Shown: positions 20,643-47,159, counted from the stretch's first letter. The stretch: 64,000 bases of DNA from Spirochaetia bacterium (GCA_965140585.1 OZ223269.1:896001-960000), one strand, 5' to 3'. Program-made: numbers and translations. The notes: generated by a model from the sequence alone, not told the origin.

Positions 20643-21902
20643 TTAAATATTATCAAGTGGACTTTGTACCCCGAGTTTGTTCTTATTTGTCACATGTGTG
20701 TAGATCATCGTTGTACTAAGATCAGAATGACCAAGAAGTTCCTGAACCGTTCGGATATCATATCCTGATTCTATCAGATTAGTCGCAAAACTGTGTCTGA
20801 GAGAATGTACGCTTGCCTGTTTTGTTATGCCTGCCTGCAATACTGCTGAATGAAAGGCTTTTTGCAATGTGGAAGGATAGATATGAAATCTTCTGATCAC
20901 CTGAGAAAATGGATCAACAGAAAGATGATGAGAAGGAAACACCCAGAACCATATCCAGGATTTAGAAGCATTACTATATTTGGAGGATAAAGCCTGAGGC
21001 ATCATAACGCCTTCACAACCAGAAGAACGATCCTTTTCATAAATCTTCCTTATCCCTTCCAGATGGACTTTAAGTTCTGATATTAGGGATTCGGGAAGCA
21101 ATGTCAACCGATCTTTATTGCCCTTACCAGAGCGGATGTGAATAAACTTTCCGTTAAAATCTATATCCTTTACTCGTAATGAGAGACATTCCTTTAAACG
21201 CATACCACTGCCGAAAATCAGTTTAGACATAAGTTTGTTTGTGCCATCCATGTAACTGAATATCTTAGAAATTTCTTCTATCGTAAGTACTACAGGTAAT
21301 TTGGGATGCCTTTTAGAAAGCTTTATATCCTTAATATTAATTTCATCGATGCTGTATACGCTTCTTGCAAAAAATAGAATAGCGTTGAAAGCCTGCTTTT
21401 GTGTATTTACAGAAATCCGCCTAGTTGAAGCGAGAGTTTGAATATATTTGATAAAATCCTGCTCATAAACATTATCAGGGACAGCATCAGTATGTTTTAT
21501 AAAGTCTTTTACCCACCATTGATATGATTTTTCAGTCTGTAATGATCTATGTTTTAAACGTAGCTGAATTCGGTTTTCCTCAATTTTTGATAACCATTCC
21601 GGCTTAATATCAATAAAATTATTTTGTTCCAATTTGATTTCAATAGAATTGAATTTGAAGTATTTCAGTACAGCATCTTCAGCCTGAATAAGCTGCCAAT
21701 CTTCAAGTTTTGAATCTAATTTAAGGTCATCTATAAAAGTTTTATACGAATAGTCCTCTGACTGTTTCTTTTTTTTAAACGATAAAAATTTACTAACCCA
21801 ATAACAGTAGTATGGGTATACCTTAGCCGGAAGAGAAGTATAGCTTCTGAGATACCCTGTATAAGCATCCAAATTAGCAGATTTATTTTTTGATTCTTTC
21901 AT
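20643..21902 (-). CDS. intI: Integron integrase (tyrosine recombinase) with N-terminal extension
   Basis: Catalytic R (GMRLKE), K (GKGNKDR), HSLRH, LGH and Y (TMIYTH) all intact; integron-specific insert [16 protein letters not shown]...DP...RRFH; adjacent to an attC array. Confidence 0.95.
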
Positions 21903-25847: not shown

Positions 25848-25985
25848 ACATAACATGAGATTTGGAGTAGTCAAAATCTTTGTCACAGTTCTGGCGGAGA
25901 CACTCCGCGCTGATCGCGCTGCGTTCCAGAACTGCGCCAAGCCTCGAAGACTCGGCCGATTTCGCTACTCAAATCGTCGTTATAT
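25848..25985 (+). repeat. attC 3
   Basis: ACATAAC...GTTATAT, main family. Confidence 0.93.
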
Positions 25986-26020
25986 TCAATAAAGGTAACG
26001 GCCGGTAACTTGGTCAACAC

Positions 26021-26303
26021 ATTTCTAATAGATTAGTGTACAGCAGCGATTTATTAAGAAAAAGAGATTAGATTAGCTCCTGATTAAAATAATACGCCTA
26101 AAAGAGTTATAAGATTAAAGGAACTTATTGATTTTCCATTTCATTACAAATCAATAAGTCTTTATATTCTAATGACTTAGCTAACAATTGTCTATTTAAA
26201 GATGCGAATGATAGAATTATTTATAAAATATAGTTCCCAGGGGCTGAAAACAGCCTTAAAATGGTAAAATACAGAAAATTGTGTACACGTAGTTATTAGA
26301 AAT
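26021..26303. other. Non-coding inverted-repeat-bounded element in the cassette 4 leader (copy at 46764-47046)
   Basis: ATTTCTAATA-n5-GTGTACA ... TGTACAC-n5-TATTAGAAAT; internal 12-bp stem 26123-26159. Confidence 0.55.
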
Positions 26304-31385: not shown

Positions 31386-31392
31386 GATCGGT

Positions 31393-31531
31393 ACATAACA
31401 TGAGATTTGGAGTAGTCAAAATTTATTGTCACGATTCTGGCTAAAGACGTTCGGGCAATGGCCCTCACTCCAGAATCGCGCCAATTCGGCGAAGACGCCG
31501 AACAATTTTGCTACTCAAATCGTCGTTATGC
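31393..31531 (+). repeat. attC 7
   Basis: ACATAAC...GTTATGC. Confidence 0.93.
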
Positions 31532-31558
31532 CGACGCAAGAAAAATCAAATAATCTTA

Positions 31559-31597
31559 TTGACAAAATATGCTAAATAATTAACTATTTACTTAGTT
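31559..31597 (+). promoter_or_regulatory. Promoter/operator of the TetR cassette
   Basis: TTGACA at 31559; inverted repeat TAACTA...TAGTTA just before the ATG; similar TAATTAAGTAATTAGTTA upstream of 32270. Confidence 0.5.
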
Positions 31598-32215
31598 ATG
31601 AGTACGAGAAATAGAGATATTACCAGAGCTAAAATATTAGAGGTCGCTTTAGAAAAATTCTCTGAAAAGGGGTTTAGCGCAGCTACAGTCAAATCAATCG
31701 CTGAGGATGCCCAAGTTAATCAGGCGTTAATCTATTATTATTTTGATAGCAAAAAGAAAATTTTAGAGGAATTAATAGATGATTTTATAGAAACCGCTAA
31801 TAGTTTTTTATATGAAATATTTATAAATGGATATCAATTTGGATCTTCCGAAATGAAAGAACAAATGGAAAAGTACAATGACTTTTTATTAAAGAATGAT
31901 AAAACATTACGGCTTATTTTTACAGAATCATTGAAAGACGAATATGAAATACCTCCCATTTTTAAGCTAATATTATCTGCAAATGAAAGTAACCAGAAGT
32001 TACAGTTTATAGATAAAATGAAACAGAATGGATTTAATTTTGATAGTGATATAAATCAATATATGGTAACTGAATTCTTTACAGGGATAATACCAGTTTT
32101 AGTTTTTAGCCTATTTAAGGGGAAATGGTGTTCAACATTTGGTGTTGATTCAAAGAATTTGTATGAGATGTTTTTAAAAGCTAATGATGCTACACATAAT
32201 GAAATGCATAAATAA
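31598..32215 (+). CDS. Cassette 8: TetR/AcrR regulator
   Basis: ILEVALEKFSEKGF...IAEDAQVNQALIYYYFDSK HTH. Confidence 0.9.
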   Translation: MSTRNRDITRAKILEVALEKFSEKGFSAATVKSIAEDAQVNQALIYYYFDSKKKILEELIDDFIETANSFLYEIFINGYQFGSSEMKEQMEKYNDFLLKNDKTLRLIFTESLKDEYEIPPIFKLILSANESNQKLQFIDKMKQNGFNFDSDINQYMVTEFFTGIIPVLVFSLFKGKWCSTFGVDSKNLYEMFLKANDATHNEMHK

Positions 32216-32269
32216 GAATAAAAAATTTGAATATATATTAATTAAGTAATTAGTTAGTAGGAGTGTAAT

Positions 32270-33082
32270 ATGACTGAAATATATTATTTTACAGGAACAG
32301 GTTTTACTTTAAAATGTGCAAAATTATTAAAACAATATATAGATGATAAAGTGGAACTAATACCAATTATTTCACTGAAGGAAGTGGAAAAAATTGAATG
32401 TGAATCAGATAATGTCGGATTTTTGTTTCCAATGCATTCATTTGATATACCCCCAATATATAAAGAATTTATTAAGAAATTCCACTGTCCAAAAGCAAAA
32501 TATATATTTTCATTAGTAACGTGTGGAGGAGCCCCTGTAAATGTTTTCAGAACAATAAGTAGACAGTTGAAAAAAGATAAAAAAGACTTAGATGCTTATA
32601 ATTTTATAGTTGCTCCAAATACATTTGATCCAGTTTTTAAAGTTTTAGTTGATAATAGTGTAAAAAATGAAAGAAAAAAAATAGAGGAAAAAGTCAAAGA
32701 ATTTGCACAGATAATAAACGAAAGAAAAATATCAAGAAAATTATCTTATAGAAATTACTTGATAGAATATACGATATTCCCGATTATTCGAATCCTAAAC
32801 CATCTTACAAAATATTATAAATTAGAAAAGGCTTTTTACACAGATGAATCATGTATTTCTTGTGGTAAATGTATAAGCATATGTCCAGTCCAAAAAATTA
32901 AGTTTAAAAATAATCAACCATATTGGGATGAAAATGTTAACTGTGTTTTTTGTTTAGCTTGTTTCCATAGATGTCCAACAGAATCGATACAAATAAGACA
33001 AACAAAATCAAAACAACTAAAACGAATATATCCAGAAGATATAAAAATAGAAGAATTGATAAAACAAAATACATATGAATAA
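32270..33082 (+). CDS. Cassette 8: EFR1-type flavodoxin-ferredoxin fusion
   Basis: YYFTGTG flavodoxin start; CISCGKCISICP and CVFCLACFHRCP. Confidence 0.85.
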   Translation: MTEIYYFTGTGFTLKCAKLLKQYIDDKVELIPIISLKEVEKIECESDNVGFLFPMHSFDIPPIYKEFIKKFHCPKAKYIFSLVTCGGAPVNVFRTISRQLKKDKKDLDAYNFIVAPNTFDPVFKVLVDNSVKNERKKIEEKVKEFAQIINERKISRKLSYRNYLIEYTIFPIIRILNHLTKYYKLEKAFYTDESCISCGKCISICPVQKIKFKNNQPYWDENVNCVFCLACFHRCPTESIQIRQTKSKQLKRIYPEDIKIEELIKQNTYE

Positions 33083-33103
33083 TTTATCGGTTATAATATA
33101 GCG

Positions 33104-33243
33104 GCATAACAAGAGAAATGCAGTAGTCAAAACCTTTGACACGGTTTTTGCAGAGAAGTAGGGTAGAGGTAAAAAGCTATGCAAAAACGCGCGCCAACCC
33201 TCGAAGACTCGGGACGTTTTCGCTACTGATTTCGTCGTTATGT
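33104..33243 (+). repeat. attC 8 (compensatory variant)
   Basis: GCATAAC...GAAATGCAGTAG...CTACTGATTTC...GTTATGT. Confidence 0.9.
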
Positions 33244-33357
33244 GGATATAAGAAATAAATATAAAAATGATAAAATAGTTCTGGAGATGAAAAATGAAAA
33301 AAGGGTTATATCAGTGGTCTTCTTCCGAAACAAGTAAAACTTAAAGAAAAAGTATGG

Positions 33358-34224
33358 TTGAAAAAAGATGAAATATTATTGGAAAAGAAAAATGATGAAA
33401 TAATTGCGTATCTTATTGGAGATGAAAAATTACAGTTTGATGATAATAATAAAATAATTCCATATTTATGGATGTCCTGTCTTATAACAAATAATACTCC
33501 AAATTTAAAAAGTTGTGGTGGAGCTTTAATAGAATCGGTTGAAAAGCTTGGAACAAAATCCATATTGTATGGTTCATTATTAGAGATAATACCAGAAGAA
33601 GCAGTCAATGAGATCGAAAAATACACTGGGGAATTTATTAAATTTATTGGAGATTTACACGATAAATATATTTTATTAATTGAGGAAAATGACTTTTTAA
33701 AGATTTCCTTAAAATATTTTTATGAAGCAGAAAAGAAAAATGTAAATTCTGATGAAGGTTTTATAGATTCAATAACATGTTTAGAAGCCCTGTTTAATGA
33801 AAGCTCAAATGATATTAAATATAAATTATCACATCGAGCAGGATTCTTATTAGGATTATTTAAATATAATTCTATAGAAGTATATGAGAAATTAAAGAAA
33901 TTTTATAATGATAGGAGTAATTTGGTTCATGGAAATGGTGCTTTGAAGTATGAGAAAGATAGATATCTTATTGAAGAATATACAAGAAGCGCAATCATTA
34001 TTTTTCTTATCCTTTTGTCGAATGATAAAAGAAAAGAAGATATTAAGAAAAAAGACAGAAAAAATCAGATATTAAAAGAAATAGATCATGCAATGCTTGA
34101 CTATGAAAAAAGTAATAACTTAAAGAAAGAGATTGATATTGGTATTGAAGATTTCAAATTAAATATACCAAGGGTTTTTGAAGGGAAAGGTAAAAAAGGT
34201 AATTATTATATACACGCATGGTAA
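33358..34224 (+). CDS. Cassette 9: HEPN (ApeA-like) domain protein; probable true start at 33294 is out of frame by one A
   Basis: ITCLEALF...KLSHR...FYNDRSNLVHG RxxxxH motif. Confidence 0.72.
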   Translation: MKKDEILLEKKNDEIIAYLIGDEKLQFDDNNKIIPYLWMSCLITNNTPNLKSCGGALIESVEKLGTKSILYGSLLEIIPEEAVNEIEKYTGEFIKFIGDLHDKYILLIEENDFLKISLKYFYEAEKKNVNSDEGFIDSITCLEALFNESSNDIKYKLSHRAGFLLGLFKYNSIEVYEKLKKFYNDRSNLVHGNGALKYEKDRYLIEEYTRSAIIIFLILLSNDKRKEDIKKKDRKNQILKEIDHAMLDYEKSNNLKKEIDIGIEDFKLNIPRVFEGKGKKGNYYIHAW

Positions 34225-34228
34225 AACC

Positions 34229-34367
34229 ACATAACAAAAGATTTGGAGTAGTCAAAATTTATTGTCACGATTCTGGCTAAAGACGTTCGGGCAATGGCCC
34301 TCACTCCAGAATCGCGCCAATTCGGCGAAGACGCCGATCAATTTTGCTACTCAAATCGTCGTTATAC
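34229..34367 (+). repeat. attC 9
   Basis: ACATAAC...GTTATAC. Confidence 0.93.
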
Positions 34368-34475
34368 GGAATATCGTGTATCTTTATAGCCTTATCCTGA
34401 AATTGGGGCGTAATTGGGGTGAATTTATGGATTCAATCTCAAGAATTGTTTTCATATCTTTGATTGATTAAATAG

Positions 34476-34510
34476 TTGACGTACGTTAATAAGTACTATA
34501 TATTGTACAT
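34476..34510 (+). promoter_or_regulatory. sigma70-like promoter with GTAC operator repeats, probably leaderless
   Basis: TTGACG-17bp-TATATT, ATG 6 nt later; three GTAC motifs including TGTACA. Confidence 0.6.
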
Positions 34511-34765
34511 ATGGAAGCTGTTAATTATTCAGATCTAAGACGAAATTTAAAGGCTCATATGGATCAAGTTTATCAGGATCACGAACCTCTTATTATTACA
34601 AGAAAAGATAATGAGAATTTAGTGATGATTTCATTAGATGATTACAATAGTCTTACAGAGACACAATACTTATTATCATCTAAGAAAAATTCTGAACATT
34701 TGATGAAATCACTTGAATCAGCTAGGGCTGGTAAGACTCTTAAAAAAGAATTAATTGTAGAATGA
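34511..34765 (+). CDS. yefM: Cassette 10: YefM antitoxin
   Basis: NYSDLRRNLK...DHEPLIITR...SLDDYNSLTETQYLL. Confidence 0.9.
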   Translation: MEAVNYSDLRRNLKAHMDQVYQDHEPLIITRKDNENLVMISLDDYNSLTETQYLLSSKKNSEHLMKSLESARAGKTLKKELIVE

Positions 34766-35016
34766 ATTTACTATTTACGCCTGAATCCTGGGATGATTAT
34801 CTATTCTGGCAGAAGAATGATAAAAAGAATTTAAGAAGAATTAATGAATTAATAAAAGATATTAGACGAAATCCATTTGAAGGAATTGGTAAACCTGAAC
34901 CATTAAAATATCAACTGCAAGGATGTTGGTCTCGTAGAATCGATCAAGAACATCGTCTTGTATATGAAGTAGAAGAAAAATTTATAAGAATCATTGCATG
35001 TCGATACCATTATTGA
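34762..35016 (+). CDS. yoeB: Cassette 10: YoeB toxin
   Basis: WDDYLFWQ...PFEGIGKPEPLK...WSRRIDQEHRLVY...CRYHY. Confidence 0.93.
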   Translation: MNLLFTPESWDDYLFWQKNDKKNLRRINELIKDIRRNPFEGIGKPEPLKYQLQGCWSRRIDQEHRLVYEVEEKFIRIIACRYHY

Positions 35017-35141
35017 ATGATGCTTTCTTGTTTCAGAATATCTATTATAAATAAGAAATATTAGAAATTTAAGAATATAAGATATCTGGATATTAAAAGA
35101 ATAAAAGCTCCTGTAAACCTTAAAACCATTGTAAAATATCC

Positions 35142-35273
35142 GTATAACAAATGAAATGCAGTAGTCAAAACCTTTGACACGGTTCTGGCAGAGACACTCG
35201 CTTAGCGCTCGTTCCAGAACCGCGCCAAGCCTCGAAGACTCGGCCGGTTTCGCTACTGATTTCGTCGTTATGC
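35142..35273 (+). repeat. attC 10
   Basis: GTATAAC...GTTATGC. Confidence 0.92.
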
Positions 35274-36868: not shown

Positions 36869-37516
36869 ATGGAAGAAATAAATAGAATAGAATTATCTGA
36901 ATTAGATTATAAAAAATATTTAAATAAATTGAGTCAGATTAATATTAAAGTTAATAGATTATTATATAAAGTAAGTTTGGAGGAATACTATGGAGCTATA
37001 TTTTCTAAGATTATTTTAATAAGATTAATAATTACTTTTAAAAATGTAAAAACGTTTATTCTCAAAGAATTAGCGATAGAATCTTTTGTATTAATGCGCT
37101 TCATTCAAGAACAGAGATGTTATTCGTATAGCTTATTAGATGTAAAAAATGATGAAGATATTAAAAAAATATCTATAACAAAGAGTATAAATAAGTTCAA
37201 AGAAAGATTCTTAATAAATGGTCAATTTTATGGAGAATTAACAAGATATGTCCATTTGGATATACATGAAATTGGTTTTTATACATCACTAGATGAAAAG
37301 ACTGAGAATATAATGAATGTAGATTTAAATCATAATGACTCGGAAATTAATTATAAGATGTTCGATAGTTTCTATGTTTTAACATTGTTTTATCTTGATC
37401 TTGTACAATATATTTTAGAACTTGAGAATAAAGATGATTCATCTATACGAAAAATTGAAAAATATAATAGTGAAATTTATGATGTATTCAGAAAGGTATT
37501 TCAGAATGAAAATTAG
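36869..37516 (+). CDS. Cassette 12: hypothetical protein
   Basis: GAGG RBS; 215 aa; ends at attC. Confidence 0.65.
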   Translation: MEEINRIELSELDYKKYLNKLSQINIKVNRLLYKVSLEEYYGAIFSKIILIRLIITFKNVKTFILKELAIESFVLMRFIQEQRCYSYSLLDVKNDEDIKKISITKSINKFKERFLINGQFYGELTRYVHLDIHEIGFYTSLDEKTENIMNVDLNHNDSEINYKMFDSFYVLTLFYLDLVQYILELENKDDSSIRKIEKYNSEIYDVFRKVFQNEN

Positions 37517-37517
37517 A

Positions 37518-37655
37518 ACATAACAAGAGATTTGGAGTAGTCAAAACCTTTGTCACAGTTCTGGCGGAGACACTCCGCGCTGATCGCGCTGCGTTCCAGA
37601 ACTGCGCCAAGCCTCGAAGACTCGGCCGATTTTGCTACTCAAATCGTCGTTATAT
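37518..37655 (+). repeat. attC 12
   Basis: ACATAAC...GTTATAT. Confidence 0.93.
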
Positions 37656-37773
37656 GCACGAATTTAGATATTGTAAAAATATTAGATATATGTGAATTTT
37701 GGGTGTAAAATAATAAAATAAAGTCGTGTTCCGATAAGAATTTAAATAGATGTTCATCATCTAAGCGTTGATT

Positions 37774-37797
37774 TCCTCGGCCATCCATGGCCTCGGA
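37774..37797 (+). other. Hairpin with ATCCAT loop upstream of the RT
   Basis: TCC-tc-GGCC ATCCAT GGCC-tc-GGA. Confidence 0.6.
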
Positions 37798-37812
37798 GCA
37801 AAGGAATAAAAA

Positions 37813-39408
37813 ATGGATTACGATAAAGCAATTAATCTTGCAATATCAAATACATTAAAAGAAGGTTTAAACGATACCTTTCCACGCCCATTTGAAGTTG
37901 ATTTACTCAAAAATACAGTATTTCAAAAAAAAATTTTTGATGTAATTAAAAAATCATTAAATGGGAATTCTTTTGAAAGTATGGGAGTAAATAACATTTC
38001 ACATGTGTTGTTTCCTAAAAACACAGCTTTTGATTTTAGACGATGTGCACTGATACAGCCTATGGATCTTATAAAATACAATGCAATCATAATATCTCTT
38101 GCTGATGAAATAGAAAAGAAAAGAATTCCAATATCAAAAAAGAACATTTTTTCTTATCGATTTAAACCTGAAAAAGGATATTTGTTCAATAGGAATTATC
38201 ATATAACCTCCTTTCAGAAGCAAGTACGAGAAGTTGCAAAGAAAAAAAGAGTAAATTTCGTCGTTTCATGTGATATAGCTAATTTTTATGATAGATTAAA
38301 CTTGCATCGCCTAGAAAATTCATTACTTTCAATTGGATGTGATAAGAATAAAGTTAAAACTATAAACGAACTACTTCTATTTTGGTCAAATAGAGATTCT
38401 TATGGACTTCCTGTTGGGTCAAATGGGAGCAGAATATTAGCTGAAGCGAGTTTAATTGGTATAGATAATTTTCTTAAAGATAATAATATCGAATTTATAA
38501 GATTTGTTGATGATTTTAGACTATTTGCTCCTGATACAACAACTGCGCATTATTGGTTAACACTTTTAATTGAAAGACTTTGGAGAGAAGGTTTAAATAT
38601 AAGCAAAAGTAAAACAAAAATAGAAGCAACTTCAAAAATTAAAGAAGATAACGTGGAAAAAAATAAGACTTCACCAGAAAAAAGAAAGGATAAAAATCCA
38701 TTTATAATAATAGCTGGGTATGGTGGAACTGTTCCAACTAGATTTAGAGAGATTTCTAAAAGGGAAATTGAACAATTAACAAAAATAAATTTAGAAGAAC
38801 TTATAAAGGATATTTCTGAATCTGATTTTATAAATTCTGATAGATTAATGGAATTGATAAAAATCATTGTAATAAAGAAACGATTTGATCTACTGGAAAA
38901 GACAATTAAATCGTTGCCAAAATATCCGCAAATGACTCCATATTTGATAGATGCTATAATTAAAAATATAGATATTATACCAAAGGAAATAATAAAAGCA
39001 GTGAAGGATATATTTTCTGAAAAAATAATATCACAGAAATATATACCTGAATATTTAGCTATATCATATATAAGGTTGCTTGGGTGTGTACCGTTTTATA
39101 ATAAAGAGATTATTTTAAAATATTTTAGGGAATTACAAAAGAATTCAGGTGATTATATAGGAAGGGTCACCCTCGAAGCTTTAAATGTTGATTTGACACG
39201 GGAAGATGTAATTGAATTAAAAAGCTATTATGATAAGTGTGATTTATGGGAAAAAAGACAGATTATTAGATTAATAAATAAATTCTTAAATGATGAAGAA
39301 AAAAGACCTTGGATTAAAAATCTAAGATATATAGAAAAAGATAATCTGTTTATAAATGAAACAATAAGTCCGTCAGAAAAACCACGAAAGAAGAAAAAAA
39401 AGAAGTAA
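37813..39408 (+). CDS. Cassette 13: reverse transcriptase, UG/Abi/DRT-like, with helical C-terminal domain
   Basis: PK...FRR, SYRF, CDIANFYD, GLPVGSNGSRILAE, FIRFVDDFRLF, GLNISKSKT. Confidence 0.88.
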   Translation: MDYDKAINLAISNTLKEGLNDTFPRPFEVDLLKNTVFQKKIFDVIKKSLNGNSFESMGVNNISHVLFPKNTAFDFRRCALIQPMDLIKYNAIIISLADEIEKKRIPISKKNIFSYRFKPEKGYLFNRNYHITSFQKQVREVAKKKRVNFVVSCDIANFYDRLNLHRLENSLLSIGCDKNKVKTINELLLFWSNRDSYGLPVGSNGSRILAEASLIGIDNFLKDNNIEFIRFVDDFRLFAPDTTTAHYWLTLLIERLWREGLNISKSKTKIEATSKIKEDNVEKNKTSPEKRKDKNPFIIIAGYGGTVPTRFREISKREIEQLTKINLEELIKDISESDFINSDRLMELIKIIVIKKRFDLLEKTIKSLPKYPQMTPYLIDAIIKNIDIIPKEIIKAVKDIFSEKIISQKYIPEYLAISYIRLLGCVPFYNKEIILKYFRELQKNSGDYIGRVTLEALNVDLTREDVIELKSYYDKCDLWEKRQIIRLINKFLNDEEKRPWIKNLRYIEKDNLFINETISPSEKPRKKKKKK

Positions 39409-39437
39409 TCCTAAAGTCCGTCCATGGACTTTAGGAT
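39408..39437 (+). other. 12-bp hairpin with GTCCAT loop directly after the RT stop
   Basis: ATCCTAAAGTCC GTCCAT GGACTTTAGGAT. Confidence 0.7.
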
Positions 39438-39461
39438 ATTTATTGGAAAAGAAAGAGTTGC

Positions 39462-39599
39462 ATATAACAAAAGATTTGGAGTAGTCAAAATCTTTGTCAC
39501 AGTTCTGGCGGAGACACTCCGCGCTGATCGCGCTACGTTCCAGAACTGCGCCAAGCCTCGAAGACTCGGCCGATTTTGCTACTCAAATCGTCGTTAAAT
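39462..39599 (+). repeat. attC 13
   Basis: ATATAAC...GTTAAAT. Confidence 0.93.
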
Positions 39600-39670
39600 A
39601 CACAAAAAGTAATTCTTATAGTATCATATGAATATAAAATATATAATTTACTACAATTGGAAGAGATTAG

Positions 39671-39925
39671 ATGAGTGGAGCTGGAACAAATTTAGGGATA
39701 GAATACCAACAAAGAGTATCTGCGTGGTTCTTAGTCCAGTTATACCTTTCAACTGGTATTAATCTTTTTTTTAGAAACTTTAATGATAATTTTGTACCAA
39801 TAGAACTACAATATGAATCTGATAATGCAGTTGATGATTTAAATATTATAGGAAGTGATTATACACTTTTTGCGCAAATAAAACGAAATTTAGCAATGTC
39901 ATCTAATAAGAAAAGTGATTTTTAA
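39671..39925 (+). pseudogene. Cassette 14: truncated N-terminal Cap4/Mrr-like nuclease domain
   Basis: GIEYQ...E...VDDL...FAQIK PD-(D/E)xK-type pattern; stops at 84 aa next to a compositional junction. Confidence 0.55.
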
Positions 39926-39981
39926 ACTGAGCACGGAATGTCAGGTTTTTCGGTTTTTGATACCTTATCTTATTACAAACC

Positions 39982-40902
39982 ATGATGCTTATGAATGAAA
40001 AAGATTTCCGGTATCACCGGCGGCTACAGAATGCAATAGATTATATCGAAGCTCATCTTCATGTGGATTTATCATTGCAGGAGGTGGCAATGCAGGCCAA
40101 CACTTCAATTTTTCACTTCCACAGACTCTTCCGGGCCTTTATGGGCCGGTCTCTGGCGGAGTATATAAGGGAACGCAGGCTATATTATGCGGCTCGAGAT
40201 CTGGTGGAAACCAAAAAAAGCATTTTTGATATTGCATTTGAATATGGATATTCCAGCGGGGAAAGCTTCCTTCGGGCTTTCAAGTCTCAATACGGTCAAA
40301 CCCCGCGGCGTTTTCGAAAGATACGAAATCTCCCTCCCTTCATGAGCATGGTTAATTTAATGGACGGCAACCATCATGGTGCCAAAGGAAGGTTAATCAT
40401 GAATCCAAAAATCAAGGTGCTAGATTCTCTGCGGATAATCGGTACACGCATTCAAACCAGTCATAGTTCCTGTCATGAAGATGTTTCCGACCTATGGAAA
40501 GATATCCATAGCAAGGCAAGTACAGGATTACACGACGAACTCAGCAGTGTAGATGCCATATACAGCGTTTGTTACGGCTCTTGCAATGGCTGCAGTTGTA
40601 CCGGAAATACTCACTCGGGAAGTGAAAATTTTGCTTTTTTTATCGGATATCAGGCACAGAAAGAAAAAGAATTGCCTGCCGGTACTTTCGAAACGACAAT
40701 TCACGGAGGAACCTATGCACTGTTCAGCCTCAAAATTAGTGAGATGCAACAGACAATGGATCAAATATATTCTCAATGGCTTCCTAAATCCGGGTATGAG
40801 CTGGATCACTACCCTATAATTGAAAGATATGGAAAGGACTGGCAGGAGAAAAAAGAGGGTATTATGGAAATATGGTTGCCCCTCAAAGTAGAAGCCTCAT
40901 GA
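39982..40902 (+). CDS. AraC regulator with GyrI-like effector domain
   Basis: AIDYIEAHL...FHFHRLF...IAFEYGYSSGESFLRAFK; C-terminal IYSQWLPKSGYE...EIWLP. Confidence 0.9.
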   Translation: MMLMNEKDFRYHRRLQNAIDYIEAHLHVDLSLQEVAMQANTSIFHFHRLFRAFMGRSLAEYIRERRLYYAARDLVETKKSIFDIAFEYGYSSGESFLRAFKSQYGQTPRRFRKIRNLPPFMSMVNLMDGNHHGAKGRLIMNPKIKVLDSLRIIGTRIQTSHSSCHEDVSDLWKDIHSKASTGLHDELSSVDAIYSVCYGSCNGCSCTGNTHSGSENFAFFIGYQAQKEKELPAGTFETTIHGGTYALFSLKISEMQQTMDQIYSQWLPKSGYELDHYPIIERYGKDWQEKKEGIMEIWLPLKVEAS

Positions 40903-42021
40903 AGAATCAACCTACAATACTGCTTTTTATAATCGGATTCTTTCTATTTTGGGTGAACTGTAGTGTCCTACATGCTTTGCTTCGGTCTGTTCACTCTATT
41001 TTTTGGTCCCCTGGGTGATAGGTTCGGCAAAACCAGAATACTGAAGCTGGCGGCAATGGGTTCTGCTGTTGCAAGTTTGGCTTCAGCCTTTTCTCCAAAT
41101 CTGAATGTAATTATTGTTATCCGGGCAATTAACGGTGCTTTTTCTGCCGGGGTTATGCCGATTTCAATGGCTTATATCGGAGAAACATCTCCTCAACATG
41201 AAATGCACAGCCGAATCGGCAAGGTTATGGGGCTGATGTTCCTGGGAAGCGCCCTGGCCACGGTAATCGGCGGAACAGTATCCCAGCTGGGTTCCTGGAG
41301 AATGGTATATTTGGTATACGGATTTGCGGAGTTGCTGTTAGTAATTCCTCTTTTCCTTCTGTTGCCTACTGACTCAACAGTAAAAAACAGCTCTATAGGG
41401 TCAGGATACAAAGAATTGCTTCGAACCCCGGGGTTCCTGAAAACTGTCGGTTTACTGTTTTTTATCGGCTTTTCTACCCTAGGTACTTTCGCATACCTGG
41501 GAGAGTACCTTCGTCAGCTCACCGGTTACGGTCTGATTCGGATCGGGTGGATTTTGGGAGCCTACGGAATCGGAACACTCTTAGGCGGAAGAATAGCGGC
41601 AGAATTACGCATGAAAATCGGCAAAGCCTTTTATTTTCTTGCTGGTTTAACGGGCGGAATAGGCTTCACATTCATATCCTTCAGCAGTACTTCTGCATAC
41701 ATCGCGGTGGCAGGATTATTTTTGGCAGGCTTAGCCTTCATCAGCCTGCAATCTTCCATTGTTTTTCAAGCACAGAATCTTGCACCGATGCGTAGAGGAG
41801 CTGTAATGTCAGCCGCTTCTTTTACAATGGTAACCAGTGCAGCCTTGGGAACATTTCTAAACGGAAAAATATTTGCCATAATGTCGGACGGCCTGCTCTA
41901 TTGTGCCGCCGGGGCTTTCTTAACCGCCGGTCTGCTGGCAACCCTAGTTTTATTATTTCGTAAACCCGGGGGGCAGAACAGACCCTCATCAATAGAATCA
42001 CATACTTCATTGAAAACATGA
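40899..42021 (+). pseudogene. MFS transporter with N-terminal deletion/frameshift
   Basis: Coupled ATG at 40899 (MKNQPTILLFIIGFFLFWVN) is in a different frame from the MFS body (GPLGDRFGK motif A) starting near 40963. Confidence 0.65.
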
Positions 42022-42211
42022 TTTGTTAACCGGCAGTCTTCACAAAAGGCTACCGGATTTTTATTTTATAGATATTTAGGTGAAAACTGCCAGTAATTCA
42101 ATGCCATGAAGAGACTGGAAGTTGGAATCTTTCTTACATGAAAGAAAAACACTGAGAACAATAACAATTTACAATCAAATTCCTCATATTATATTATTAA
42201 TTTTAATAAAA

Positions 42212-42739
42212 TTATTTTCTCCTTTTTGCAAAAACTTCCTGGTTCATTTTCCAAGTTTTCGTTTTATCATTAGTAACAAACGCTTCCCATTTAAATGATT
42301 CATCAGTTATATCTTTAAAAACCCATCTTGAGATTTTGCCTTTATCAATAAATGGTATTTCATCTTGAACTATCTCATCATTTTCTACAGTAACTTTAAA
42401 TACGTTGAACTGCGAAAGTATTGGTCCAAACCAAAATGCTTTTATATTGTTTTCTTTAAAATCATAGACTCTGATTGTCGTCCCATACTCACCTTCCGGA
42501 TATTTATCCGTTTTTCGGAGTTCTCTTAATGGACATATCCAATTATCTTGAATAACACGCCCTTCCAAAATCCATGTAAAAATCCATTCACCTGGAACTG
42601 TCCAAGTTGAGCCATCATCCTCATGTCCCACCCAATCAAAATTCCAGTTGCCAATTAGCGGAGCATATGGACGTAATTTCTCCTGATATTGTTCATGAAC
42701 ATTATCAGCTAGTAAGGACTTTATAAATGTGTTTATCAT
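42212..42739 (-). CDS. Hypothetical protein (beta-barrel-like)
   Basis: AGGAG RBS before the ATG at 42739; LIGNWNFDW...GEWIFTWILEGRVIQD. Confidence 0.65.
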   Translation of the reverse strand: MINTFIKSLLADNVHEQYQEKLRPYAPLIGNWNFDWVGHEDDGSTWTVPGEWIFTWILEGRVIQDNWICPLRELRKTDKYPEGEYGTTIRVYDFKENNIKAFWFGPILSQFNVFKVTVENDEIVQDEIPFIDKGKISRWVFKDITDESFKWEAFVTNDKTKTWKMNQEVFAKRRK

Positions 42740-42852
42740 ATTTACTCCTATCGAATAAAAATCTATACAAGGTCTTTCATAGTTAGTAGCGAAGCACAGA
42801 TGCCGAATGTTCAAAATCGCAAAATAAAAAACTCTGATTTGGCACAATTCCC

Positions 42853-43512
42853 TTAACTAACAATAACTTTATACAGACATAATGAAATCGGCAAACTAAA
42901 AGCCAAAAAACCACTGATTGTATGACCCCGTGCTGACCATTTTGCAGAATTAGTAACAAACGTAACTATTGAATATGTGACTCCAAGAGGAAATGTAGAA
43001 ATTATAAAAATTACAGGATGATCACTTTGGATAGAAAACTGAGGTGCGATATGCCAAAGAGTAAAAAATATTGACGGAATAAATACAGACCACAATATAC
43101 TTTTAGGAAATACTTTAATATAAAGTCCTCTCCAAAATAATTCCTCACAATATCCATGAATTATTGAGAGTGGGATAGCAAGAATTATTATAGCTGGAAT
43201 CATTGATGGTAGCTTCGGAATGAAGTACATAAATATCGGTACCAATATTGTGGATGCAAATAATATTAAAATCCACCAATTCTTCTTCCTGAAAAGAGGT
43301 CTTTCATTTCTGAAAAAGCTGAAAAATGATCTCTTCGATGTATAAAGCGGAATTAATATGCACCATATTATGTAATAAAATGCAAAGCCTAATAGATAAC
43401 CCCAATACTTTCCCAGGGATTTAGTTGCAACATAGAAAACAAACGATGTAGTTAAGATCAAAAGAATGGGGAGTATTATAAAGAGTCCTTTTTTCGTTAG
43501 CATAGAAAACAT
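42853..43512 (-). CDS. CPBP/Abi (CAAX-type) intramembrane metalloprotease
   Basis: EELFWRG, FTLWH, H motif; multi-pass membrane. Confidence 0.82.
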   Translation of the reverse strand: MFSMLTKKGLFIILPILLILTTSFVFYVATKSLGKYWGYLLGFAFYYIIWCILIPLYTSKRSFFSFFRNERPLFRKKNWWILILFASTILVPIFMYFIPKLPSMIPAIIILAIPLSIIHGYCEELFWRGLYIKVFPKSILWSVFIPSIFFTLWHIAPQFSIQSDHPVIFIISTFPLGVTYSIVTFVTNSAKWSARGHTISGFLAFSLPISLCLYKVIVS

Positions 43513-43661
43513 TATTTAGCTCTCCAATCTGCTATAGATAGCATATTCTTTTTATTCATATAAATTATTTTGCGTTTATTTCCAATAATGTTTCAGAAAT
43601 ATGCGAAATGCGGCAACTTCGCATTTGCCGAAGGCCGGCCCATTGGGTGCAGTGCATATTT

Positions 43662-44453
43662 CTAGTTAATTGTGTCATATGGTACAGGTTGAGTACCATC
43701 GATATCTTCAAAACCATATTCCTTAGCCAATTCAGCAGTTACTAATATTTGTCCAGTTTTTGATATTGGTTTTACATCAGAAGCCAAGTGTGAAATTGCC
43801 CTCCCGACGAACTGAGAGGATTCTTTTTTGGGATTGGGCTTCTTCTTGTTATCGTCAATGTAACCGGGATATAATGAAACACAAGTAATGTTATATGGTT
43901 TTAGTTCGACTGCCATATCCATAGACATTTTATCAACTGCTGCCTTTGCAGTACCGTAAATTACATTTCCGTAGTATTTAAGACTGGCATAAAACGAAAT
44001 ATTTACTATTAATCCTTGCTTTTGCTCAATCATCATTTCTGTGGCAAAAACACTTGAAACAAAATTTGAACGAACACCAACATGGTTCATTTCATCCCAC
44101 AACTCTATAGGTTGTTTCCAAAAAACTTCTTTCCACTTAAAGCCTTTATATTTAGTTCTGTTACGTAACCGATTATAACCACCCCAAGCATTGTTAACCA
44201 ATATATCCAGCTTTCCTTCTTTTTCTTTAATAATTTCAAATACTTTTTTTACTTCCTCATCTATCTCATGATTACATGCTAATGCAATACCTTTTCCGCC
44301 AGCAGCAGTAATACCCTTTACATCTTTGTCGGTTATACTTCTGCCTGTTACATAGACAGTTGCTCCTGCTTCACCTAAACCGATTGCGATTCCTTTGCCA
44401 ACGTTACGGGTTCCGCCTGTTACAAGCGCAACTTTCCCTTTAAGATTTTTCAT
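43662..44453 (-). CDS. SDR oxidoreductase (DHRS1-like)
   Basis: TGGTRNVGKG, LVNNA, YGTAK. Confidence 0.9.
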   Translation of the reverse strand: MKNLKGKVALVTGGTRNVGKGIAIGLGEAGATVYVTGRSITDKDVKGITAAGGKGIALACNHEIDEEVKKVFEIIKEKEGKLDILVNNAWGGYNRLRNRTKYKGFKWKEVFWKQPIELWDEMNHVGVRSNFVSSVFATEMMIEQKQGLIVNISFYASLKYYGNVIYGTAKAAVDKMSMDMAVELKPYNITCVSLYPGYIDDNKKKPNPKKESSQFVGRAISHLASDVKPISKTGQILVTAELAKEYGFEDIDGTQPVPYDTIN

Positions 44454-44537
44454 TTTGTCTCCTGATTACCAATTTTAGATATTATTTTAGTTAAATTTGT
44501 GGTTGTTTTCTTGACCTATATTGCTATTTTTGTGTAT

Positions 44538-44783
44538 TTAACCAAAATATATTGCACAGCCATAGTTATTTATCTTTCTTATGTTGTGAACTAAGCAATA
44601 TAATAGCCATTGCGTATTTACCTTCTTTTTACTCCGTAATGTGAAATGATTTAATTATAATACTCCACTTAAATGACCAAATATGGATTCAACTGTCCCC
44701 ATCCTCTTACTATAAATGCTCCAGCCTTCTACAGTATCAAATCGTTTTTTTATTTTTGATGTAAACGACTCTTTGCTCCTAGG
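44538..44783 (-). pseudogene. IS1182-family transposase C-terminal remnant (not in ORF track)
   Basis: Manual translation RFDTVEGWSIYSKRMGTVESIFGHLSGVL*LNHFTLRSKKKVNTQWLLYCLVHNIRKI, with one internal stop. Confidence 0.75.
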
Positions 44784-44833
44784 ATGTGCAAAGCTGTTAT
44801 ATCATTCTTGTCGATACACTCAATATTTTTTTA

Positions 44834-45049
44834 TTATCCCCAAAAACAACAATACTCATCCTTCTCAACTATTTCTATAAATTCTTCAAGTTTATCTACA
44901 ATTGGAGCAGTTTCGTATATATGCCATTTTAGATCACTTCTCATCCATAATATTTTCCATTTTTTCTTAGTAGCTACATATGTTGTTTTGGCTATATCAT
45001 GATTGTGAATTATATCTCTATTATCCCATTGCGGCCTAATCTCAAATGC
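44834..45049 (-). pseudogene. DUF3024 family protein, 5'-truncated (not in ORF track)
   Basis: Manual translation FEIRPQWD...IAKTTYV...WKILWMRSDLKWHIYE...EKDEYCCFWG*; no start codon. Confidence 0.7.
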
Positions 45050-45535
45050 ATTGGCCTATTCCATGGAGATGAGAATAAAGATATTGATACTTATTATAAA
45101 AATCAAACATCAGGAGCAAGCAATATTGTTGAGCAAGCTGATAATAGCAAATGGATAGAGCATTATGAAGAATATGAAAGGGAAATTGCAGCTCTTGAAT
45201 CTTTGCCTATTATTATAAACCTGAATCCGTATCAATCAAGGGGAAAATAAAAATTATTTCTTTGATATACAGAGAATAAGCATATTTTCATACGTTCACC
45301 TATTGGGTGAAACCCAATATCATGGATATTTCCATATAAAACAATGAATTAGCATTTGTCCTTTTGGCTTTTTATACGGATTCAGGTGAAAATAGAATAT
45401 GCTACTTAGAGGATAAATTTACTGGATTCTTATAGGATTATTTGAATCTTGTCAAAAAAATCTAAAATAAAATAAATTAATAGAAAAAAAAATTTAAAAA
45501 AGAGTAAAAGTAAAATTGATAAAAATAGAAATGGT

Positions 45536-45670
45536 ATTTAACAAATCGCTGAAACTGACCAAATCTTTGTCATGCTTTTTGCCTTCGGCCGTTCAGTCAC
45601 TGATCGTTCTTTCACTCAAAAAGCACGCCAACCCTTCGGGACGATTTGGCAGCTTAGCTCGGCGTTAAAT
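45536..45670 (+). repeat. attC 14 (divergent family)
   Basis: ATTTAAC...GCCAACCCTTCGGGAC...GGCGTTAAAT. Confidence 0.88.
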
Positions 45671-45788
45671 ACACGATGTTTTTCCGTTTAGGGAAATCCT
45701 TGGGTGTGATAGGATTGATTAAGAAAAATAAGATGAATTTCCATAGGTGCGCTGCCAACATCATTAGTTGAAAGCCATTATAAGTGGA

Positions 45789-45810
45789 AAATAGCCATCC
45801 ATGGCTATTT
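45789..45810 (+). other. Hairpin with ATCCAT loop upstream of the TA module
   Basis: AAATAGCC ATCCAT GGCTATTT. Confidence 0.6.
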
Positions 45811-45821
45811 GAAGAAAATAC

Positions 45822-45857
45822 TTGAAATAAGTTAGCATGCATGCTAACTTATATTGT
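45822..45857 (+). promoter_or_regulatory. TA promoter overlapped by a 26-bp perfect palindrome (operator)
   Basis: TTGAAA-17bp-TAACTT; ATAAGTTAGCATGCATGCTAACTTAT at 45827-45852. Confidence 0.65.
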
Positions 45858-46220
45858 ATGAAACGAGAAATTATCTTCTATGAAAAAGAAAATGGAAGAT
45901 GTCCAGTTGAAGAATTTTTAGATGATCTTGAGATAAATATTGTTAAAAAGATTACATGGACTCTAAAAATTATTGAAGAGATAGATATAGTTCCAAAGAC
46001 TTATTTCAAAAAATTAGAATCAACAGAAGAAATTTGGGAAGTAAGAATAAAATTCGCTTCAAATATATATAGAATATTTAGTTTCTGGGATAAAAATAAC
46101 ATAATTGTGTTAACGCATGGATTAATAAAGAAAACTCAAAAAACCCCTGCAAAAGAGATAAAACAAGCAGAAGAATATAGACGAGATTATCTGAGGAGGA
46201 AGAATAATGAACTTAGATGA
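45858..46220 (+). CDS. Cassette 15: RelE/HigB-like (DUF891/Gp49) toxin
   Basis: FYEKENGRCPVEEFL...IWEVRI...YRIF...HGLIKKTQKTP.KEI. Confidence 0.85.
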   Translation: MKREIIFYEKENGRCPVEEFLDDLEINIVKKITWTLKIIEEIDIVPKTYFKKLESTEEIWEVRIKFASNIYRIFSFWDKNNIIVLTHGLIKKTQKTPAKEIKQAEEYRRDYLRRKNNELR

Positions 46221-46479
46221 ATATGTTGATAAAAGAATAAAAAAAGAAGGAATTAAAGAAGAAGAATTCTGGGAAGGGTATGAGGAATTCAAGATCGGTG
46301 TATTTCTAAGAGAAGCAAGAGAGAAAAATGGATTAACCCAGGAAGAATTAGCTAGAATGATACATACTACAAAGAGTGTAATATCAAGAATGGAAAATCA
46401 TTCAGAGGATATAAAATTATCAACAATTGAAAAAGTCGCAAAGGCTTTAGGAAAGGAAGTGAAAATAGCGATAGTATAA
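46207..46479 (+). CDS. Cassette 15: XRE-HTH (HigA-like) antitoxin
   Basis: LREAREKNGLTQEELA...ISRMEN. Confidence 0.85.
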   Translation: MNLDEYVDKRIKKEGIKEEEFWEGYEEFKIGVFLREAREKNGLTQEELARMIHTTKSVISRMENHSEDIKLSTIEKVAKALGKEVKIAIV

Positions 46480-46482
46480 AAT

Positions 46483-46506
46483 TCCAAAGACATCCTTGTC
46501 TTTGGA
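46483..46506 (+). other. Hairpin with ATCCTT loop directly after the antitoxin stop
   Basis: TCCAAAGAC ATCCTT GTCTTTGGA. Confidence 0.6.
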
Positions 46507-46589
46507 CATATAACATAAACTTTCAGCTATGAAGAAAATAAGAAGAAAAAAATATTTTGATTTTTCTGAAATGAATGAAAAACATCGGT

Positions 46590-46728
46590 ATTTAACAAGA
46601 GATTTGGAGTAGTCAAAATTTATTGTCACGATTCTGGCTAAAGACGTTCGGCCAATGGGCCTCACTCCAGAATCGCGCCAATTCCGCGAAGACGCGGAAC
46701 AATTTTGCTACTCAAATCGTCGTTATAT
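46590..46728 (+). repeat. attC 15
   Basis: ATTTAAC...GTTATAT. Confidence 0.93.
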
Positions 46729-47159
46729 TCAATAAAGGTAACGGCCGGTAACTTGGTCAACACATTTCTAATAGATTAGTGTACAGCAGCGATTTATTAA
46801 GAAAAAGAGATTAGATTAGCTCCTGATTAAAATAATACGCCTAAAAGAGTTATAAGATTAAAGGAACTTATTGATTTTCCATTTCATTACAAATCAATAA
46901 GTCTTTATATTCTAATGACTTAGCTAACAATTGTCTATTTAAAGATGCGAATGATAGAATTATTTATAAAATATAGTTCCCAGGGGCTGAAAACAGCCTT
47001 AAAATGGTAAAATACAGAAAATTGTGTACACGTAGTTATTAGAAATTTGTATACAAAGCTCGGTCTGAACATAAATTGTGTTTTAATTAAATATTTGTAG
47101 GAGAAGTTGCTAATTTAATGGTATAAGTAAATAATATTATAAAATTAAGGATTTAAGAA

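Follow-up and report, generated by a model that had tools for sequence, protein, structure and literature searches.

What are the short hairpins that share a loop at both ends of two unrelated gene cassettes in a spirochaete integron? The DNA that raises this question, hereafter the window, is a stretch of 64,000 nucleotides (GCA_965140585.1 OZ223269.1:896001-960000, or G000:C6:896001-960000 in our numbering of genomes and contigs) that contains a chromosomal integron of an uncultured Spirochaetia bacterium, whose genome (G000) is 98.5% complete. One cassette carries a reverse transcriptase (RT) gene and the other a toxin-antitoxin pair. The original prediction, made from the window alone, was that each is bracketed by one upstream and one downstream hairpin, and that these hairpins may mark the ends of a gene-capture unit nested inside the attC-delimited cassettes. 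We confirmed all four hairpins in position and sequence, three of them as strong structures and the first with a 4-bp stem only. They are listed here with positions counted from the first nucleotide of the window and with z-scores that compare the folding of each hairpin with that of shuffled sequence.

37779..37792, plus strand: hairpin 1, leader of the RT cassette, GGCC-ATCCAT-GGCC, 4 bp, z = -0.80
39408..39437, plus strand: hairpin 2, trailer of the RT cassette, ATCCTAAAGTCC-GTCCAT-GGACTTTAGGAT, 12 bp, z = -4.75
45789..45810, plus strand: hairpin 3, leader of the toxin-antitoxin cassette, AAATAGCC-ATCCAT-GGCTATTT, 8 bp, z = -2.84
46483..46506, plus strand: hairpin 4, trailer of the toxin-antitoxin cassette, TCCAAAGAC-ATCCTT-GTCTTTGGA, 9 bp, z = -5.70

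The stems of all four are perfect. Hairpin 1 ends 20 nt before the ATG of the RT gene, just before the ribosome-binding site (RBS) AAAGGAA. Its z-score means that, taken alone, it is no better than chance, and it is a weak member of the leader class described below, placed there solely on account of where it lies, the loop it carries, and its GCC/GGC closure. Hairpin 2 begins within the TAA stop codon of the RT gene and finishes 26 nt before the next attC. Hairpin 3 lies upstream of a palindrome that is likely an operator and of the start of the toxin gene, and hairpin 4 lies 3 nt past the antitoxin stop codon and 86 nt ahead of an attC. The leader and trailer stems of any one cassette are unrelated. 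Folding indicates that an internal A-U pair is possible within the loop ATCCAT, which leaves a UCCA tetraloop.

These hairpins are real, strongly enriched in the untranslated zones of cassettes, and specific both to one strand and to one lineage. The enrichment belongs to the structure and not to its core sequence. By itself, the 8-mer CRTCCWTG is not enriched (8 found versus 4.5 expected, with 11 of 100 shuffles reaching 8), but all four of its plus-strand copies inside the array are hairpins. The G000 genome has 1071 copies of CRTCCNTG, among which 26 have a perfect stem of at least 4 bp. When one mismatch is allowed, 9 copies have at least 8 pairs, as against 0, 2, 1, 0, 1, 0, 0, and 0 for eight scrambled-loop controls. 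At that same threshold, hairpins are formed by 7 of the 21 array copies versus 2 of the 1050 copies elsewhere in the genome (Fisher p = 1e-11). Thus, motif frequency exceeds that of controls for the hairpins, although not for the bare 8-mer, and the earlier view that a fixed loop reflects selection on a structure is supported by this enrichment and by recurrence in three genomes.

That recurrence extends to five arrays, with two in G000, two in G001, which belongs to the same genus, and one in G007, which belongs to another genus of the same family and whose attC sites are of the G000 type with identity up to 97%. Among sense-strand copies of the motif in the five arrays, 26 of 41 have at least 5 pairs, to which hairpin 1 can be added with 4, whereas none of the 12 antisense copies is a hairpin (p = 6.5e-5). 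The single orientation noticed in the window is therefore strict throughout these arrays. When hairpins with a 6-nt centre and at least 7 bp are collected without bias from 282 kb of array outside attC, 81 are obtained, and RTCCNT is on the sense strand in 18 of these and on the antisense strand in none. If perfect hairpins of at least 8 bp are considered, the TCC type contributes 13 of the 24 that lie within 140 nt ahead of an attC and 9 of the 20 within 140 nt behind one, compared with 3 of 67 at other, internal sites in arrays (p = 2e-8). Once T at loop position 1 and a pentaloop (GTCCT) are admitted, there are 36 instances, 31 of them unique, and all are on the strand of the open reading frame (ORF). 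Inside ORFs, weak TCC-motif hairpins are mostly antisense to the ORF.

Beyond this family the signal disappears. Arrays of five genomes from other Spirochaetia families (G043, G044, G045, G054, and G018) hold no sense-strand hairpin with a perfect stem of at least 4 bp, bar one 4-bp case in G045; the G044 array has one antisense 7-bp case. In 594 kb around 45 IntI-like genes of other phyla, we found 136 copies of the 8-mer and no hairpin with at least 6 pairs. Hence the broader scan that had been proposed revealed both pairing and strand bias in the arrays of this lineage and came up empty in other phyla.

The stems had been thought free to vary, but they fall into two consensus classes, a 5′ leader class and a 3′ trailer class, with a common apical loop, C-[A/G/U]UCC(N)U-G. 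A shared apical loop therefore stands, while the invariance once ascribed to C-RTCCWT-G does not, because position 1 may be T and position 5 may be absent, in addition to the internal pairing open to ATCCAT. Leader hairpins are closed by GCC...GGC; a gap of 14-27 nt separates their end from the start codon and one of 2-10 nt from the RBS, and the leaders of two toxin-antitoxin cassettes lie before a promoter or operator. In trailer hairpins, the first base lies between -1 and +29 nt from the stop codon and the last one 10-129 nt short of the next attC; the 5′ arm is rich in A and finishes with TAC, GAC, or TCC, and the 3′ arm is rich in T. Overall hairpin length is 14-32 nt. Pairing is kept across many different stem sequences: at stem positions 2-8, 201 of 217 cells are paired with 3-4 pair types per position, a count that is partly circular because the set was picked for at least 6 pairs.

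Seven distinct cassette families are bracketed by a leader and a trailer, including those of the RT, the window toxin-antitoxin pair, a second toxin-antitoxin pair, an HNH protein, and cassettes in G001 and G007. The other hairpins are single, and the predicted arrangement of one upstream and one downstream hairpin per cassette applies only to these families. In a second array of G000 on contig C9 (L008 16689-18766), three tandem, near-identical cassettes encode a 167-amino-acid protein with a P-loop-like GSGKT motif (by inspection), and each has the leader AATCCGCC-TTCCGT-GGCGGATT, with T at loop position 1.

The hairpins are distinct from attC sites but lie close to them. The attC profiles (nhmmer, both types) do not cover the hairpins, and no R′′/R′ core sites (RYYYAAC...GTTRRRY) occur in the hairpin sequences. 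A short conserved stretch after the core site (e.g., CAATAAGCGCCAAG) is complementary to sequence before an attC of the same type and is therefore an outer extension of the attC stem. Thus, the hairpins are located at the junction between attC-derived sequence and payload, with a few to ~35 nt between them and the extended attC stem on either side. They share with attC sites the same arrays, the same strand, and a definition by structure, whereas they differ in the missing core sites, in size (14-32 nt versus 90-145 nt), and in also occurring away from integrons.

Where homologous cassettes occur in different arrays, their similarity extends over the whole stretch between core sites and is not bounded by the hairpins. 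The toxin-antitoxin cassettes of G000 and G007 are 83% identical and both of their hairpins are identical. The spacer before the leader has many substitutions and indels between the two genomes (by eye), and the flanks of trailer hairpin 4 also differ. Another comparison involves three cassettes with unrelated ORFs (two small proteins; a 171-amino-acid protein that looks acetyltransferase-like; a two-gene pair) and related trailers, in which two compensatory double changes are seen and the similarity starts at the first base of the hairpin. Because the trailer consensus and a single attC type are common to these cassettes, this starting point does not show that hairpin and attC travel as a unit. 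Drt8-type homologues of the RT with 63% (G044, L175) and 42% (G172, L176) protein identity, from two other families, are also carried by integron cassettes, but in these the stop codon is directly followed by attC and TCC hairpins are absent. The hairpins are therefore a lineage-specific addition. The G044 RT gene is ~620 kb from the intI gene of that genome.

A family with these features is already known. The RNA motifs TD-1 and TD-2 were described in 2007 by Weinberg et al. in Treponema denticola only, with 28 and 36 copies, and seven TD-1 copies overlap the reverse complements of TD-2 copies, with no function assigned (PMC1950547). Judging from the accessible part of that paper, the acting strand was thus already uncertain at the time, and its account of TD-1 and TD-2 makes no mention of integrons there. 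In the paper library searched, PMC1950547 was the only paper to match on these motifs of T. denticola, and the literature on CsrA and Treponema small RNA (sRNA) offered nothing on TD-2 among the matches listed. The integron section of PMC5737381, in the portion available, treats a DUF1874 motif and not the hairpin motif discussed here.

The leader and trailer types, when reverse-complemented, correspond to the TD-2 consensus (RF03162), accgcc-AuGGAu-ggcggu ... GcUgAAaAguGugc-AcGgAU-gcaCacUuUUcAgC. Its first hairpin (gcc-AUGGAU-ggc) is matched, by eye and unscored, by the reverse complements of window hairpins 1 and 3 (GGCC/AAATAGCC-ATGGAT-...). Its third hairpin has an A-rich/U-rich 14-bp stem ending in ..GUGC and the loop ACGGAU, and this form is found in the reverse complements of window hairpins 2 and 4 and of 13 other trailers, as well as in 53 hairpins from TD-2 loci of G007 and G043. 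The Rfam gathering cut-offs are 48.7 bits for TD-2, a model of three ordered hairpins, and 64.5 bits for TD-1 (RF03155), a motif in 5′ regulatory configuration. A full TD-2 match of 54.1 bits is present in G000 (C6:268628-268712) between genes for an FAD-oxidase and an Fe-S protein, and a second match of 35.4 bits, under the gathering cut-off, lies between ahcY and metK. These two core intergenic regions are the strong G000 cases outside arrays. In both, a trailer follows the upstream stop codon, a middle hairpin comes next, and a leader precedes the downstream RBS, with the Rfam match on the opposite strand. Within the array, an attC separates the trailer of one cassette from the next leader, so no full TD-2 match occurs, and no middle hairpin was seen between the two. 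Array hairpins differ from TD-2 in being split by attC (90-140 nt) and in having stems that are far more diverged. They are alike in that the leader resembles the reverse complement of TD-2 hairpin 1 and the trailer that of hairpin 3, with a full TD-2 in the same genome and TD-2 at home in the same bacterial class. We conclude that the hairpins appear to be cassette-borne copies of the two outer hairpins of the TD-2/TD-1 family, which also marks ordinary gene boundaries. As a set they are unlikely to be ordinary terminators that share a loop by chance, and a check against known families that had been suggested leads to TD-2/TD-1.

The distribution of the family is patchy. TD-2 is present in 9 of the 61 Spirochaetia genomes searched (E <= 0.001), with 54 matches in G043, which represents another family, 3-24 in all six genomes of genus g4, and 1 in G000, whereas G001 has none under stricter filters. 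Three further 29-bit matches in G000, apparently just downstream of an rRNA gene (by eye), were not treated as TD-2. Rfam scans of loci L008, L013, and L039 returned the core TD-2 match only. TD-1 was found neither in the window nor in these three loci, and its matches were seen in G043 only.

Additional observations on TD-2 loci are worth recording. The metK leader (L040 1900-2140, on contig C7 of G000; homologues L089-L092) is kept in G001, G007, G006, and G004 and was not seen in G005; its stems differ (TTCCGC, CCGC, CGGATT, CGGGC), and its loops are ATCCAT, TTCCAT, TCCAT, and AGCCAT. G007 has tandem TD-2 arrays at L139 1453-1990 (4.8 x 112 nt, 98% matches) and L140 1521-1775 (2.5 x 101 nt). 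Their units have two GGA loops each (by eye), and the arrays, which are placed between divergent genes, share the orientation of the gene downstream. In G043, 6 of the 54 TD-2 matches fall within ~50 kb beside intI (C1 1245868-1291288; L017, L018) on both strands, together with two TD-1 matches (88.8 and 70.2 bits).

Which strand acts is the central difficulty. CsrA recognizes A(N)GGAX sites, in which the N is optional. On the minus strand, the loops, including those of all four window hairpins, present C-A(N)GGAY-G at the apex. Both the variable loop bases and the optional base fall at the N positions of CANGGANG, the high-affinity apical hexaloop consensus of CsrA/RsmE as given in the accessible text of PMC4894983. 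The G000 genome has a csrA gene (90.9 bits). The GGA strand is antisense to the neighbouring genes at every array instance and at both G000 core loci. With ORFs of at least 90 amino acids serving as gene proxies in place of annotation, it is also antisense at 14 of 17 G007 loci, where the exceptions are one convergent locus and the two tandem arrays, and at ~9 of 16 G043 loci, where 3-4 are sense and 3 unclear. Along a single G007 contig the TD-2 strand is constant (coordinates, by eye). This absence of a strand switch points to transcription, not replication, as what sets the orientation. The bias speaks for hairpins that either act in the sense transcript or are constrained by it.

Certain simpler uses of the loop were considered and rejected. 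The loop end NTG (ATG/GTG/TTG/CTG) does not serve as a start codon: the ATG of hairpin 1 is out of the RT frame and opens a short ORF, and that of hairpin 3 opens a 3-codon ORF (by eye). Pairing of the loop with the downstream RBS is limited to a GGA:UCC core (by eye), and one leader has no GGA downstream. Kissing with TD-2 RNAs in trans was also discarded, as G000 has no independently oriented TD-2 copy.

Given these findings, we favour, with a probability of about 0.55, the view that the hairpins are lineage-specific gene-boundary hairpins of the TD family that would act in the sense transcript through a recognised UCC loop. They would correspond to the outer hairpins of TD-2/TD-1 on the strand opposite to the TD-2 model, and TD-2 itself would be what is formed when trailer, middle hairpin, and leader stand side by side between co-oriented core genes. 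It is reasonable to speculate that the trailer contributes to termination or 3′-end protection and the leader to 5′ protection or translational control. The loop might be read by a lineage-specific partner, which could be a protein or an RNA bearing GGA. The RNA is considered because the loop and the CsrA-type A(N)GGAN loop are exactly complementary. An RNA-protein binding loop, which the original prediction had offered as its alternative, is accordingly viable in the form of a putative partner.

Several observations weigh against this proposal. The window has no Rfam match at gathering level and none at E <= 1 over 37400-47000, and the case for TD-2 is therefore built on comparing single hairpins with the consensus and on the two core loci. 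We know of no partner that reads a UCC loop, and the sole known protein consensus that fits, that of CsrA, fits the opposite strand. The wobble count is balanced, with 5 internal G.U pairs versus 4-5 A.C on the GGA strand of the 53 hairpins, and two A.C mismatches in array hairpins become G.U on the opposite strand, so the sense strand is not favoured. The leader of the second toxin-antitoxin cassette stops 4 nt short of a perfect TTGACA-17-TATAAT promoter and would therefore be missing from the mRNA of that cassette. A T run is absent from most hairpins. Only ~1 cassette in 8 has hairpins (36 instances among 187 attC detected in five arrays). Finally, among sequencing runs recorded as RNA none contains this stretch, and the acting strand and the function proposed here are predictions from sequence.

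The GGA strand might be the one that acts, in which case the loops would be CsrA-type sites, TD-2 would be a family of CsrA-binding RNAs, and cassettes would carry antisense CsrA sites at both ORF ends. We consider this conceivable, if on the unlikely side. The minus-strand loops read C-A-N-G-G-A-Y-G with their variable positions at the N of the CsrA consensus, csrA is present, Rfam models TD-2 on the GGA strand, and three A.C mismatches on the TCC strand are G.U pairs on the GGA strand. All 53 hairpins from 40 TD-2 loci have the form A-N-GGA-N or AGGA-N and are closed by C-G, but the search pattern required that form, and this is no independent confirmation. The tandem arrays of G007 (4.8 and 2.5 units), with two GGA loops per unit, are reminiscent of the CsrB/RsmZ sponges, and TD-2 may even be the missing CsrA-sponge RNA of spirochaetes, with these arrays as the sponges. 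Against these points, an antisense placement in all array instances, both G000 core loci, and 14 of 17 G007 loci would be unexpected for an independent sRNA gene. CsrA sites known so far are found over the RBS in sense leaders or within sponge sRNAs, whereas the GGA strand of the arrays is antisense to the cassette genes. Moreover, hairpin positions are tied to the stop codons and RBSs of sense genes, and the wobble count is balanced. Small intergenic palindromic repeats such as REP/BIME, ERIC, Correia, and the dRS3/NTS repeats of Neisseria resemble the array hairpins in being short, hairpin-forming, multi-copy, and lineage-specific and in standing at gene boundaries. Some occur in tandem, and some terminate transcription or stabilise mRNA. 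A dispersed REP- or MITE-like palindromic repeat without a cassette role, oriented by selection against CsrA sites on mRNAs, could give rise to the multi-copy TD-2 with its conserved consensus (54, 24, 17, and 12 per genome), the tandem arrays, the restriction to certain lineages, and the insertion-like absence from homologous RT cassettes elsewhere. The mostly antisense weak TCC hairpins in ORFs further indicate that composition alone can bias the strand. Nevertheless, we judge this reading unlikely. Array stems are widely diverged while loop and pairing are kept, the hairpins are perfectly kept in the 83%-identical toxin-antitoxin cassettes while the adjacent spacer is kept much less (by eye), and positions relative to stop codon and RBS are tight. 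REP and NTS elements are recognised through stem and flank sequence, but here the loop is the invariant part. In the accessible text of PMC11893778, NTS repeats that 'surround key genes' are read as single-stranded DNA (ssDNA) by the nuclease SsnA, and the NTS loop is dispensable. A search for Y1 HUH transposases (RAYT; PF01797) found none in G000 although control genomes gave matches; a Ssn homologue was not searched for.

The negative Y1 result also bears on the proposal that started this analysis, in which a gene-capture unit is delimited by ssDNA hairpins that an HUH nuclease or recombinase would read. Such a signal is highly improbable in our estimation, even though the hairpins sit exactly at the junctions between ORF payload and attC-derived sequence, a few to ~35 nt from the extended stem, come as pairs in seven cassette families, and include the three trailers whose similarity begins at the hairpin's first base despite unrelated ORFs. 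It is also the case that the middle hairpin of the core TD-2 occupies the slot that attC has in the array. However, the same hairpins mark core-gene boundaries with no attC nearby, their orientation follows transcription, cassette homology runs from attC to attC, RT cassettes elsewhere manage without them, and only a minority of cassettes have them. A common trailer consensus and attC type suffice to explain similarity that starts at the hairpin. The ends of IS200/IS605 elements need TnpA (Y1) and have left and right hairpins that are alike, whereas here no Y1 gene was found and leader and trailer stems are unrelated. A related conjecture is that TD-2-type units are places where cassettes of this lineage are made or refitted, with attC taking the slot of the middle hairpin, the cassette taking its own gene's leader and the trailer behind it, and the loops being read by a machinery that joins ORF and attC. 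No positive support for this has emerged, and we regard it as a long shot. Ordinary terminators or palindromes with a coincidentally common loop would fit the unenriched bare 8-mer, the folding of hairpin 1 no better than shuffles, and the eight hairpins of at least 5 bp outside arrays versus ~4 expected (own estimate). Trailers do resemble intrinsic terminators in following stop codons, and many have A-tract/T-tract arms like those of bidirectional terminators. When a stable hairpin with a T-rich tail on the transcribed strand is required, hairpin 2 scores as terminator-like on either strand and hairpin 4 on the minus strand alone, while hairpins 1 and 3 do not qualify. In terminators, however, the loop is unconstrained, whereas here most hairpins have no T run and leaders lie directly before the RBS. 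Coincidence is scarcely credible for the whole set, given 0-2 hairpins in scrambled-loop controls versus 9, the Fisher p of 1e-11, recurrence in two further genomes, and the 18 to 0 split between strands; it is refuted for the set taken together, while hairpin 1 by itself could be a chance palindrome.

The setting of the hairpins of which we favour a role in the sense transcript is a plus-strand cassette array that runs from ~23946 to past the window end. With a profile made from the attC sites of the window, we detect 28 attC on the window contig, 4 on C2, and 1 on C9. The features around the two cassettes are as follows.

20643..21902, minus strand: integron integrase gene intI (TIGR02249, 374.7 bits; cut-off 265)
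37519..37657, plus strand: attC (type A, ~135 nt) ahead of the RT cassette (nhmmer E = 1.4e-43)
37813..39408, plus strand: reverse transcriptase gene, 531 amino acids, defence-type Drt8 (RVT_1 E = 1.7e-14; PADLOC Drt8 E = 4.3e-127)
39463..39600, plus strand: attC at the end of the RT cassette (nhmmer E = 2.5e-42)
45556..45671, plus strand: divergent attC ahead of the toxin-antitoxin cassette, family D14 (nhmmer E = 7.7e-07)
45827..45852, no strand assigned: perfect palindrome with 11-bp arms, ATAAGTTAGCA-TGCA-TGCTAACTTAT, not a TCC-loop hairpin
45858..46479, plus strand: toxin-antitoxin pair, a Gp49/HigB-like toxin and an HTH_3 antitoxin (46207-46479) (ORF and family search)
46592..46729, plus strand: attC at the end of the toxin-antitoxin cassette (nhmmer E = 2.8e-39)

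The toxin ORF as listed begins at 45837, and the ATG at 45858 is the likelier start. The palindrome, which is likely the operator of the toxin-antitoxin pair, is nearly conserved in G007.

Several features of the arrays deserve brief mention. A conserved linker of ~95 nt follows several type-A attC sites and ends in a type-B-like core site (..AACCCCGGGACGTTAT/GTTAGAC). It occurs in the window (37658-37750 and 45672-45760, degenerate in both cassettes), in the G001 and G007 arrays, and on C9 (L008 ~14690-14790, minus strand). This linker accounts for the regular spacing of 118-124 nt from attC to leader hairpin, and could represent either a hybrid attC or a very small cassette without an ORF. 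The array on C9 (~455000-487900; L008, L009) is a second, integron-like one, with at least 36 shorter attC sites (~90 nt) on the minus strand and one type-A attC embedded among them. It is downstream of, and co-oriented with, an integrase-like gene (365 amino acids) that scores 99 and 96 bits in two pieces, under the IntI cut-off. On C2, four type-A attC sites are clustered on the minus strand (31248-35243), and no match to the IntI model is present on that contig; the cluster looks like one of the type termed CALIN (clusters of attC sites lacking integron integrases). Within the window, 25959-26258 and 46702-47001 are a 300-nt repeat with 100% identity, and the cassette behind the toxin-antitoxin cassette therefore appears to be a duplicate of an earlier cassette of the array. 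The 6-kb stretch 39600-45556, in which no attC was detected, contains three minus-strand ORFs (42212-44453; 211, 219, and 263 amino acids) and may be a non-cassette insert or a run of inverted cassettes.

These findings connect TD-1/TD-2, an orphan Rfam motif that one species has been known to carry since 2007, with the ends of integron cassettes. In a family of uncultured Spirochaetia, TD-type structures are the dominant stable hairpins at the ORF ends of cassettes, that is, at the junctions between ORF and attC. The loop that CsrA recognises is exactly complementary to their invariant loop and is itself what the other strand presents. The reading as a nested gene-capture signal has been set aside as unsupported, which leaves a narrow version in which attC stands in the place of the TD-2 middle hairpin. 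If cassettes were indeed made at TD-2-type units, this would be the first sequence handle on cassette genesis. If the GGA strand is the working one, spirochaetes would possess a large family of CsrA-binding RNAs. If instead the hairpins act in RNA as we propose, they would be a lineage-specific means of providing defined transcript ends for promoterless or self-expressed cassettes, whose carriers include those of a defence RT, toxin-antitoxin pairs, and an HNH protein.

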